NCBI GenBank assembly: GCA_036490345.1
Contig: DASXEA010000017.1
Span: forward strand, 96 to 64,095
DNA from: Rhizomicrobium sp.
GTDB taxonomy: Bacteria; Pseudomonadota; Alphaproteobacteria; Micropepsales; Micropepsaceae
Direction: 5' to 3'
Length of the DNA: 64,000 nucleotides
Positions 46,728 through 49,370 of the stretch are shown here, piece by piece; the stretch's first letter is position 1; each line of letters opens with the position of its first letter. Position numbers and translations under genes: made by a program. The notes under the pieces are model-generated. The model worked only from the letters and a program-made list of their open reading frames with translations. It was not told the DNA's origin and did no database searches.

Positions 46728-47192
46728 TCATTCGCCATTCTGCACGTCGTGGAACCGTTTGGCCCAGCGGATGGCGATATCTTCATTCTCGGCGCGGAGC
46801 TGATTGACCTCGTCGCGCAATTCGCGGCGTTCGCGGATCCAGGTCTTGCGATCCATCTCCTCCGCCGCCTGCGCTTCGCGCCGCGCGAGCTCGCGAAACA
46901 GCGTCTGCAGCAATCGCGGATCGCCGCCGGCAATTTTGTCGACCACGCCGCGCGCCATGGCCTCGCCGCGGCTGACAGAGCGCCGCCGGCCTTCCACCTT
47001 GATCGTGACCCGTTCGGCCAGCGTGGAGCACAGAAGGTCGGTGACATTGGGCACCCGTGGCGGCCGGCCCCTGGGATTGCCCGATTTGCCCTTCCGGAAC
47101 CGCGTCTTCCTCGGCGGCCGCTTGTGGCCGATTTCCTCGTCCTGTTCTGTTGCCGTTTCTGTTGCCATTTCTGGCGCCGTCCCGTCCATCAT
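46728..47192 (-). CDS. DUF5681 domain-containing protein
   Basis: G..RPP..TRF.KG.SGNP.GRP, ERVTI...G....S..EA. Confidence 0.85.
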   Translation of the reverse strand: MMDGTAPEMATETATEQDEEIGHKRPPRKTRFRKGKSGNPRGRPPRVPNVTDLLCSTLAERVTIKVEGRRRSVSRGEAMARGVVDKIAGGDPRLLQTLFRELARREAQAAEEMDRKTWIRERRELRDEVNQLRAENEDIAIRWAKRFHDVQNGE

Positions 47193-47318
47193 GCCGAAAC
47201 TCCTTGAGGGTCTGGCATGGCAATATAAGACCATTTTGGTCACATTGCAACCCATAACAGGTTAAAACAGCTTGGCATCCGGTCTTCCTTGTGTAGCCTA
47301 ATGTGTGGAGAGACACAC

Positions 47319-47672
47319 ATGGCAACAAATCTCGATCTTGATCCGGCCCTCATTGAAAGCGCTCTGGCGGTCAGCGGCGAGCGGACGAAGAAGGCGGCCG
47401 TCGCCATGGCGCTGGAGGAATTCGTGGCGCGGCGGAAGCAGCGGCGGATCGTGGCGCTTATGGGCACGCTCGAATGGGACGAGAGCGTCGACTTTAAGAA
47501 GGAGCGAAGCCGCGCCGGATCGAAGCGCCGCTCGCGGTGGCGCCGCGCTTCGTGTTGCCTTCCGTCCTCCAAACAACGTCGGCATCCGGGATGTTATTTC
47601 GTGGCTCAATACCCAGCCTGTCGTTTCCCCTGTCAACGCTTCGATGCCCGTCCCGCAACCCGCACCGCCTGA
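47319..47672 (+). pseudogene. Orphan VapB-type antitoxin that has lost its stop and reads into intron DNA
   Basis: MATNLDLDPALIE.A...SG..TKKAAV..ALEEF.ARR.Q...WD...K.ERSR; no PIN toxin follows. Confidence 0.7.
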
Positions 47673-47750
47673 CTCGGGGCCAGTGTGGTTCGCTATTACT
47701 TCACTGCACGGGACTCTCACCCGCCATTCCTTGCCGCTCTCCCGGCGCAC
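47510..47750 (-). mobile_element. 5' fragment of a bacterial group II intron (no reverse transcriptase ORF)
   Basis: Begins GTGCG; continues GTGAGAGTCCCG..GCGAACCACACTGGCCCCGAGTC..GAAGCGTTGACAGGGGA..GGCTGGGTATTGAGCC..GATGCCGAC..GGAAGGCAACAC, a domain-I pattern I recognise from bacterial introns. Confidence 0.75.
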
Positions 47751-47960
47751 TCAGAGTGGGATCTGTCGCAGCAGTTGGATTTGGCGGGTATCGCGTGCGG
47801 CGGCCGGCATGGGGCCGGGCGGAAATGGTGCGGCACGGCGCCTGGCGGCCTCTTCGATCTCCGCCGTCGCCAGCGTCGCCAGCAGATGCACGTGGTTCGT
47901 CATGAGCACACAGGCATGGATACTGAGCCCGCTCTCGCCGGCAGTCTCAGCCTGGTGAGA
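47751..47960 (-). pseudogene. Internally deleted RAYT/Y1 transposase remnant
   Basis: IHACVLMTNHVHLLAT.AT joined directly to EIEEAARRRAAP.PPGP..., i.e. the two ends of the intact copy at 48591-49307. Confidence 0.9.
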
Positions 47961-48012
47961 CGACTTCTGTACCGGGGAGCGACTTGGGAAAATAGATGAA
48001 CTCGAAATCAAT

Positions 48013-48177
48013 TTATCTCTTTTGTATCTGGTCGGTTCTGATCACCGGCGCGTACGAGGCAATGTACATGACAACGCGCTGGCTGTAGATGAACGAACAA
48101 GATTTTCGTTCCGCAGCATCCGCGCCTGTGTGTCCGATGAGCAAGAGAACGACCACAAAAATCGAGACTCTCAACAT
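48013..48177 (-). CDS. 54-aa hypothetical peptide with a signal-like N-terminus
   Basis: Own translation MLRVSIFVVVLLLIGHTGADAAERKSCSFIYSQRVVMYIASYAPVIRTDQIQKR; TGATG overlap with the upstream gene. Confidence 0.5.
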   Translation of the reverse strand: MLRVSIFVVVLLLIGHTGADAAERKSCSFIYSQRVVMYIASYAPVIRTDQIQKR

Positions 48178-48527
48178 CACTGCGTCAGATAAATGCCAAC
48201 GATATGGGCATCCCGCTGAGCGACAAGGATGACGAGATCGCCACCGATTTCACCGGTTCCTGTCTTCGTTGCGACTTGCCAGACTCCGTCTTTAAGCGTC
48301 GCTTCCATGCTCGATTTCCACGCTTCTTCGGTGCCGATATGGCCAACCAATTCAGGATGCATCGATAGCCACACTGCGTGTGCAATCGTGATCGCAGCCT
48401 TCTGATCTCGAACGACTCCGGCGACTGGCGGTTGCCAACTAGCCTGCGGTGCAGGTCCGGCGATACAGCCTGTAGCAGCCAAAAGAGGAAGCAGGGCCAG
48501 TGCTGAGACGAGCATCATCCTTTGCAT
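48177..48527 (-). CDS. Exported NTF2-fold immunity-like protein (YbbC/YhhH-like)
   Basis: Signal/lipoprotein-like N-terminus (ATGC); V.DQKAAI.IA.AVW....ATLKDGVW.V....G.IGG....I....DA.I matches the family pattern as I recall it. Confidence 0.6.
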   Translation of the reverse strand: MQRMMLVSALALLPLLAATGCIAGPAPQASWQPPVAGVVRDQKAAITIAHAVWLSMHPELVGHIGTEEAWKSSMEATLKDGVWQVATKTGTGEIGGDLVILVAQRDAHIVGIYLTQ

Positions 48528-48569
48528 TTTGCGTTCTTCCTCCACCCCACTCTATGGCCCTGGAGAAGA

Positions 48570-49370
48570 TCAGGGCCAGAGTGAGATCTGTCACGGCAGG
48601 CGGATTTGGCGGGGATCGCGCAGGGCGGCCGGCCTGGGTCCCGGCGGAAGTGGTGCGGCACGGCGCCTTGTGGCCTCTTCGATCTCCTGGCGGAAACGCG
48701 CGCCTCCCATCGCCCAGCCGCCGTTGGTGGCCGCGCGCAGTGCCTCGACGAACGCCGGATCGAGCCGTTCCCTGATCAGGGCACGCCAGGCAGATTGCCG
48801 TTCGTCCAGCGAGCGGCCGAGCCGGCGAAACGCATTGTGGAACTGCGCGAGCGGATCCTCCCGTCCTTCGGCGTGGGCCCGATAGCTCGACCAGCGATGG
48901 TTCCTGGGGTGGGCCACCAGGCGGGCACGCACGGGGTTGAGCTCGATATAGAGACAGCAGGAGACGAAGTACTCTTCGGAATCGATCGGACAAGCGCGAT
49001 AGCGCCCTTCCCAGAGCGTGCCGCTGCGCCGGTAGCGCAGGTTGATATGGCGCACGTAGCGCCGCCCGAGCGACTGCATCGTTGCGGGCAGACTTCCCGC
49101 CGTCGCCGGCGTCGCCAGCAGATGCACGTGGTTGGTCATGAGCACATAGGCATGGATCTTGAGCCCGTTCCTGCCCGCAGCCTCCGCCAGCCAGTCGCGG
49201 TAACGCACATGGTCGTCGTCGCTGAAGAAGATCGCTTTGCGGTCGTTGCCCCGCTGGATCACATGCAAGGCCTGGCCTTCAACGAAATACCGTCCGAGCC
49301 GCGCCATGCCACCCCCAAATCCGCAGCGACACTACACGATGTCCGCGCCAGTTTCCACTCCGACCCCGAA
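48570..49370 (-). mobile_element. RAYT-type element bounded by short imperfect terminal inverted repeats
   Basis: TCAGGGCCAGAGTG (48570-48583) versus CACTCCGACCCCGAA (49356-49370) around the transposase gene. Confidence 0.65.
48591..49307 (-). CDS. REP-associated tyrosine (Y1/HUH) transposase
   Basis: HVIQRGNDR..IF, AYVLMTNHVHLL (HUH), LWEGRY, YIELNPVRA.LV..P....WSSY. Confidence 0.95.
   Translation of the reverse strand: MARLGRYFVEGQALHVIQRGNDRKAIFFSDDDHVRYRDWLAEAAGRNGLKIHAYVLMTNHVHLLATPATAGSLPATMQSLGRRYVRHINLRYRRSGTLWEGRYRACPIDSEEYFVSCCLYIELNPVRARLVAHPRNHRWSSYRAHAEGREDPLAQFHNAFRRLGRSLDERQSAWRALIRERLDPAFVEALRAATNGGWAMGGARFRQEIEEATRRRAAPLPPGPRPAALRDPRQIRLP

Follow-up and report, generated by a model that had tools for sequence, protein, structure and literature searches.

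Truncation is typical of bacterial group II introns, as is a position inside other mobile DNA (PMC4424553). The closest precedent for the locus described here is RmInt2, for which both inverted repeats of ISRm17 serve as homing sites (PMC4615759, PMC5894124). RmInt1 resides in ISRm2011-2 (PMC4075523, PMC5894124), and two of the nine group II intron copies of P. putida KT2440 are associated with REP sequences (Tobes and Pareja 2006, PMC1525189). Class C (IIC) introns insert after terminators or at attC sites, and they recognize a DNA stem-loop and a short IBS1, without an EBS2 (PMC4424553). In the literature that we searched, we found no description of an intron homing into the ends of RAYT/Y1-transposase elements.

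The window, which is the whole 64,000-nucleotide stretch of Rhizomicrobium sp. DNA that was analysed, hosts the 5′ fragment of a group II intron at 47510-47750 on the minus strand. The Rfam family RF02005 (group-II-D1D4-6) matches positions 47717-47501 (minus strand) over the whole model, with a score of 151.6 bits (E 1.6e-43) where the gathering score is 49. The canonical intron 5′ end GTGCG, read directly at 47746-47750 (minus strand), lines up with the start of the intron in over 25 relatives, and both the conserved group II 5′ end GUGYG and the domain I architecture are present. Alignment to full-length relatives (82-89% identity) shows that the fragment corresponds to nucleotides 1-241 of an intron of ~1.9 kb, i.e. 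to part of domain I. The rest of D1, D2-D6 and the RT ORF are absent, and the D5/D6 family RF00029 has no match anywhere in the 64 kb window. The sequence-only reading of this DNA had described about 240 nucleotides of domain-I-like sequence without an RT and had suggested an Rfam search; the length proved exact, and the search identified a clear group II domain I. What survives is thus a fragment, not functional as a group II intron. It cannot fold, splice or move, and is an inert fossil. In the 4.16-Mb draft genome it is single-copy, and a tblastn search of the assembly with a relative's intron protein found no intact group II RT, the sole match being an unrelated 3′ intron fragment on another contig (C52). 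This second relic (C52:34869-35386, plus strand) consists of part of an RT gene and D5/D6, is 72-84% identical to the intron of a related genome (G201, below), and ends ...CGCGAT, followed by CTGAATTC. We considered it as the missing half of the window stub and ruled this out, since the differing 3′ exon, CTGAATTC, indicates another target.

The element that was invaded is best seen in an intact copy nearby, which we use as the reference. This is a 238-aa RAYT-like Y1 (HUH) transposase gene at 48591-49307 (minus strand), identified from Pfam, NCBIfam and its motifs. It scores 48.6 bits against Pfam Y1_Tnp (cutoff 23), and the HVH and LWEGRY motifs (HUH and the catalytic Tyr) can be read by eye. 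Its score against NCBIfam REP_Tyr_transpos, 68.3 bits, is under the cutoff of 80, and we therefore use the label ‘RAYT-like’. Directly after its stop codon a motif search locates a 17-nt repeat (48576-48592, minus strand), which is an empty site of the right-end type. An inverted copy lies ~56 nt upstream of the start codon (49353-49369, plus strand); this is also empty, and is of the type that is occupied in relatives. Because inverted copies of the motif bracket the transposase gene, we interpret them as the terminal inverted repeats of a RAYT-like element. Right-end copies, just after the stop codon, read ...ACTC(T/C)GA and then CCCCGATC, while the left-type version is inverted and slightly longer, reading ...ACTCTGA and then CCCCGAAC.

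The 17-nt end motif occurs ~20 times in the genome, versus 2 occurrences for a reversed control. The copies are modestly dispersed, mostly beside intact or decayed transposase genes (2 intact and ~8 decayed copies in the genome), and they are not strong palindromes. Empty sites of both end types are found in the genome itself, and left-type or unassigned empty sites in the genomes G193, G201 and G169. Upstream of the second intact transposase gene there are two tandem left-type repeats ~59 nt apart (C13:1043-1118, minus strand), which are two potential homing sites side by side.

The intron stub abuts a decayed copy of the transposase gene at 47751-48011 (minus strand). By BLASTP and DNA alignment this remnant matches only residues 27-70 and 208-237 of the intact copy, so the N-terminus is gone and there is an in-frame internal deletion. 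Intact copies end at a TGA five codons upstream of the TGA of the repeat motif. This upstream stop is now CGA in the remnant and in several other copies, and the frame therefore runs on to the TGA inside the motif (47753-47751, minus strand), which closes the remnant ORF 48011-47751. The 5′ half of the right terminal repeat, found by motif search at 47751-47767 (minus strand), is the 5′ exon of the intron, with IBS1 at 47751-47756. The sequence-only reading had placed GTGCG directly after ...ACTCTGA, at the stop of the RAYT remnant and at the point where other copies continue CCC. All of this is borne out: 47750-47746 follows 47757-47751 (minus strand), the right-end copies read (A)CCCCGATC, and ~10 other repeat copies in the genome have CCCCGA where the window copy has GTGCG. 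The intact and the co-oriented, internally deleted transposase copies together (47751-49369) enclose two small ORFs (48177-48545 and 48013-48180, minus strand) that have no Pfam match. The stub lies at the outer end of this composite.

Relatives of the intron were searched for in 229 genomes of the genus and 301 of the order, and ~20 related introns were found. The order-level search gave no new close relatives, as the order contains only the same family. Each sublineage among these genus, family and order relatives has its own flank, and the two closest genomic relatives (82-84% identity) both lie directly after (A)CTCTGA. The first (G201:C49, 82% identity) is a full 1880-nt intron with D5/D6 (RF00029), with which the stub is collinear; its RT gene is decayed, with two stops and a frameshift. 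Its exons, ...ACTCTGA before the intron and CCCCGAAC after it, rebuild a left-type repeat that is one base different from an empty copy in the genome of the window. The second (G193:C4, 84% identity) is cut by a contig end and also follows ACTCTGA in a left-type repeat. This intron sits in a ~60-bp unit of two inverted repeat copies with no transposase gene between them (locus L178, 133-192), and this doublet has the appearance of a miniature version of the RAYT-like element, derived from it and non-autonomous. Features of the intron 3′ end are also present in full-length relatives, which have a D6 with a bulged A, the 3′ end AT and, in L177, a match to RF00029.

A scan of metagenomes with a 28-nt intron-internal pattern picked up 120 loci, and in 82 the 5′ end could be read. 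These fall into flank groups, with 28 loci at ...TTATCA, 11 at ...CTCTGA, 7 at ...GAGGCT, and others. For the CTCTGA group the EBS1 loop is TCAGAG wherever it is readable (8 of the 11 loci), and the 3′ exons begin CC. Some of the 11 are re-samplings of one site; allowing for this, the sublineage is represented by about 10-12 independent insertion loci. Every relative that we found with EBS1 TCAGAG is inserted at (A)CTCTGA followed by CC. Full-length relatives and their upstream flanks were proposed as a check by the sequence-only reading, and the answer is uniform: the two genomic and 11 metagenomic loci all lie after (A)CTCTGA, and the 3′ exon begins CC wherever it is visible. A separate scan of species genomes with an exact 19-nt degenerate pattern was discarded, as all of its 120 loci were chance matches in GC-rich genomes.

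Uninterrupted ORFs of ~500 aa or more are found at six loci (L244, L261, L286, L312, L325 and L284). Five of these belong to the CTCTGA group, and L284 has a CTTCGA flank. Judging from these reading frames, the sublineage probably still has active members. In the other sublineages (L224-L343), 12-17 nt of 5′ flank are strongly conserved within each sublineage, although the surrounding contexts are many and unrelated; for example, 28 loci end ...GGACATTATCA, 7 end ...CCTTCGAGGCT and several end ...TTTCG. This suggests that each of them homes into some other repeated element.

How the site is recognized can be seen from the covariation of introns and flanks. In the alignment of relatives, the loop of a hairpin at intron nucleotides 179-184 covaries with flank positions -6 to -1, and is EBS1. 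The 23 distinct pairs of loop and flank average 5.7 of 6 positions paired, versus 2.62 on average and never more than 3.65 when the intron/flank pairings were permuted 5000 times. From the register of this alignment, EBS1 of the window stub is TTGGAG (47567-47572, minus strand), which pairs with the exon CTCTGA at all six positions (four Watson-Crick and two G-U pairs), while the TCAGAG of its sublineage relatives is a perfect match to CTCTGA. The EBS1/IBS1 pairing that the sequence-only reading had singled out for checking is thus present, with two wobble pairs in the window copy. A candidate EBS2, GAAAU at intron nucleotides ~153-157, was chosen by inspection; it pairs with positions -13 to -9 at 5/5 positions in the left-type site of G201 and at 3/5 in the right-type site of the window. 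Covariation across relatives gave no clean signal for EBS2 and did not establish EBS3.

The sequence-only reading had also pointed to bacterial group II introns that target structured sites such as attC and terminators, and the site here is not of that kind. DNA folds of three of the four repeats are indistinguishable from those of shuffled sequences, and the insertion point is unpaired. We therefore rejected a structured or hairpin target, as the folds show no stable hairpin at the insertion point. Targeting is conventional sequence homing by base-pairing and not hairpin recognition.

The neighbourhood of the relatives links the intron to the transposase gene. At G201:C49 a RAYT homologue (E 1e-51) starts 62 nt from the intron on the opposite strand, and two pairs of metagenomic loci, L265/L303 and L305/L289, have one 63-64 nt away, the latter pair being of the G201 locus type. 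Altogether a RAYT homologue is near the intron in 4 of the 8 evaluable loci of the CTCTGA group, versus 0 of ~70 in the other flank groups. For the ~70 introns with other 5′ exon ends, of which ~50 have at least 300 nt of upstream sequence, the search used both tblastn and an HMM built from 11 homologues, and found none. RAYT adjacency is specific to the CTCTGA/TCAGAG sublineage, and counting only independent cases it occurs at three loci (that of the window and those of the G201 and L265 types). The window copy is the sole right-end insertion that we found; in the relatives it is the left repeat that is occupied, and the left-end repeat appears to be the preferred site. The sequence-only reading suggested that this lineage may home into RAYT terminal repeats. 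This is now supported by relatives at the same site, with a RAYT homologue ~62-64 nt away at G201:C49 and at two metagenomic locus types. Homing of this intron lineage into a RAYT-like transposon family is supported.

Some of these loci could also be read in another way. If the insertion in the window were a one-off ectopic event, and the true site a dispersed short repeat that shares the core motif, the RAYT genes would be bystanders. Three loci of the sublineage (L266, L312 and L342), about half of those that are evaluable, have no RAYT homologue by tblastn or HMM in 1.3-6 kb of upstream sequence, although their flanks are repeat-like all the same. Together with the G193 intron, in its ~60-bp inverted doublet without a transposase gene between the arms, and the poorer pairing of the window site with EBS1 and the candidate EBS2, these loci speak for the dispersed repeat. 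However, the dispersed copies and the transposase ends belong to one repeat family, and a RAYT gene recurs at a fixed 62-64 nt in two locus types that are independent of each other, and never in another sublineage. With one repeat family and a recurrent spacing, the dispersed-repeat explanation is largely a narrower version of homing into RAYT-like ends, and as a separate account we consider it unlikely.

We regard it as highly probable that the stub is the fossil of site-specific retrohoming into a terminal inverted repeat of the RAYT-like element. The 3′ exon has been lost from the window copy, which weighs against reading an in-situ insertion directly from this locus. On that side the stub converges with an orphan vapB antitoxin gene (47319-47513, plus strand; Pfam PF09957, E 7e-12). 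Homologues in 31 genomes of the genus match its residues 1-64, continue for one more residue, end, and are followed by vapC; the window copy lacks the last codon, the stop codon and the vapC partner. The unpublished genome G109 was among the genomes listed in this search, and none of our conclusions depends on it. The vapB homology ends at 47513 and the intron homology at 47510, so the two share CCGC at 47510-47513, and such a 4-nt overlap is a signature of illegitimate deletion. vapB was orphaned by the same decay that left the inert stub and the dead flanking transposase copy. The gene for a DUF5681 protein (46728-47255, minus strand; Pfam E 7e-19) adjoins the orphan vapB, and along with the transposase debris it suggests that the region is a decayed mobile-element patch.

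A junction of this kind on one side of the stub raises the question of the other. Illegitimate recombination might have joined stub and transposase remnant as it joined stub and vapB, in which case the insertion site would be a rearrangement artefact, and the region is indeed a patchwork, with an internal deletion in the transposase, a vapB without its partner and an intron cut short. The break at the transposase side falls exactly at intron nucleotide 1, and within the repeat it coincides exactly with the 5′ splice junction of the relatives. A random breakpoint would not fit both, and we give this explanation very little credence. Equally improbable is that the stub was co-opted, e.g. to act on vapB or the transposase as a structured or antisense RNA: the extended vapB frame does run antisense through the stub to 47672, but the stub is single-copy in the genome, has no syntenic conserved copy in the 228 other genomes of the genus, and faces a vapB that is missing both its own stop and its partner, a state that suggests decay and not regulation.

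To place the retrohoming intron among known classes, we turned to its full-length relatives. Over its full length the intron aligns collinearly, with 67-69% identity, to ~1.9-kb ltrA introns that a plasmid collection contains on plasmids or secondary replicons of Ralstonia, Acidithiobacillus, Burkholderia, Rhizobium, Bradyrhizobium and S. meliloti. The 493-aa intron protein of a collinear relative matches RVT_1 alone in Pfam and TIGR04416 in NCBIfam, and neither collection identifies an endonuclease domain (D/En, HNH) in it. Class D intron proteins carry the C-terminal signature LX3AX3PXLF[V/A]HW (PMC4615759), which is unmatched in the tails of the relatives (...RILHPWPS.RFAVKHPR). Class D (RmInt1-like, IIB3) was therefore not assigned: a protein without D/En fits, but the C-terminal signature does not. 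Class C was rejected as well, as three of the four repeats fold like shuffles, the insertion point is unpaired and the IBS1 is 6 nt long and covaries. We describe the intron as endonuclease-less and IIB-type; it may belong to class E or to some other variety that lacks an endonuclease. An unannotated intron of ~1.9 kb from the same family is also found on S. meliloti plasmid pA (L222, NZ_CP141213.1:1574146-1576058). Its EBS1, TGACGT, fits the flank ACGTCA, and its target is thus unlike that of RmInt1.

The likeness to RmInt2 is considerable. Both introns are endonuclease-less and ~1.9 kb long, with IIB-type exon recognition and an EBS1/IBS1 pairing next to the splice site, and, provided that the candidate EBS2 is correct, IBS2 would again be at about -13 to -9. 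The natural targets of both are the terminal inverted repeats of another mobile element, of which either end is usable. Unlike RmInt2, the intron described here targets a Y1 (HUH) RAYT-like element rather than ISRm17, its relative's protein lacks the class D C-terminal signature, and its use of a right end is represented by a single decayed copy known from sequence alone. RmInt1 likewise parasitizes an insertion sequence, lacks an endonuclease domain, is of similar size and has many fragmented copies, but it inserts within the transposase gene and not in a terminal repeat, and its EBS1 has 7 nt and another sequence. In P. putida KT2440, too, a group II intron is found within REP-type repeats or beside them. 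A specific homing relationship was not proposed in that case, whereas here the association defines a sublineage. IIC introns share the absence of an endonuclease and the use of motifs of other genetic elements. Where they rely on a DNA stem-loop with a short IBS1, the site described here is defined by sequence, with a 6-nt IBS1 that covaries with EBS1 in 6 bp and no stable hairpin at the insertion point.

These comparisons suggest a history for the locus. An endonuclease-less IIB-type intron of ~1.9 kb would have reverse-spliced between ...ACTCTGA and CCCCGA..., guided by RNA-DNA pairing of the 6-nt EBS1 loop with the last six bases of the 5′ exon, as the covariation indicates, and presumably helped by two more contacts, one of EBS3 type with the C at +1 and one of EBS2 with positions -13 to -9. 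Priming of cDNA synthesis at the replication fork is established for RmInt1 and RmInt2. Since the intron protein has no endonuclease domain, we propose by analogy that cDNA synthesis was primed in this way, although this mechanism is borrowed from class D introns and the relative's protein lacks the class D C-terminal signature. With the core motif inverted at both ends of the element, one end always offers the sense strand in the favoured orientation. Relatives have the intron in the left repeat, at 62-64 nt from where the transposase starts and transcribed away from it; in the window it occupies the right repeat of a decayed element copy. A later deletion at a 4-nt microhomology would then have taken out the intron from nucleotide 242 onward, along with the 3′ half of the repeat, the vapB stop and vapC. 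In terms of annotation, the intron sequence at 47510-47750 is an inert relic, its neighbouring transposase copy is dead and vapB has been orphaned.

For bacterial introns, homing into other mobile elements is a well-known habit, and it is the target that is newly described here, within the literature that we searched. Y1/RAYT-type elements can be added to the mobile elements that serve group II introns as safe landing sites. The locus is also the second natural case, after RmInt2 and ISRm17, with both inverted repeats of the host element as possible homing sites, an arrangement consistent with the replication-fork model for introns that lack an endonuclease. The related introns, with more than 20 different EBS1/IBS1 combinations, provide a natural retargeting series in an endonuclease-less family. 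We favour, with less confidence than for the fossil itself, the broader reading that the TCAGAG sublineage, some members of which appear to be intact in metagenomes from soil and peat, is specialized on the terminal inverted repeats of RAYT-like HUH-transposase elements and uses both ends. If so, the intron splits the repeats that presumably serve as the ends of the element, and it would be the first, within the literature searched, shown to home into a Y1/RAYT element.
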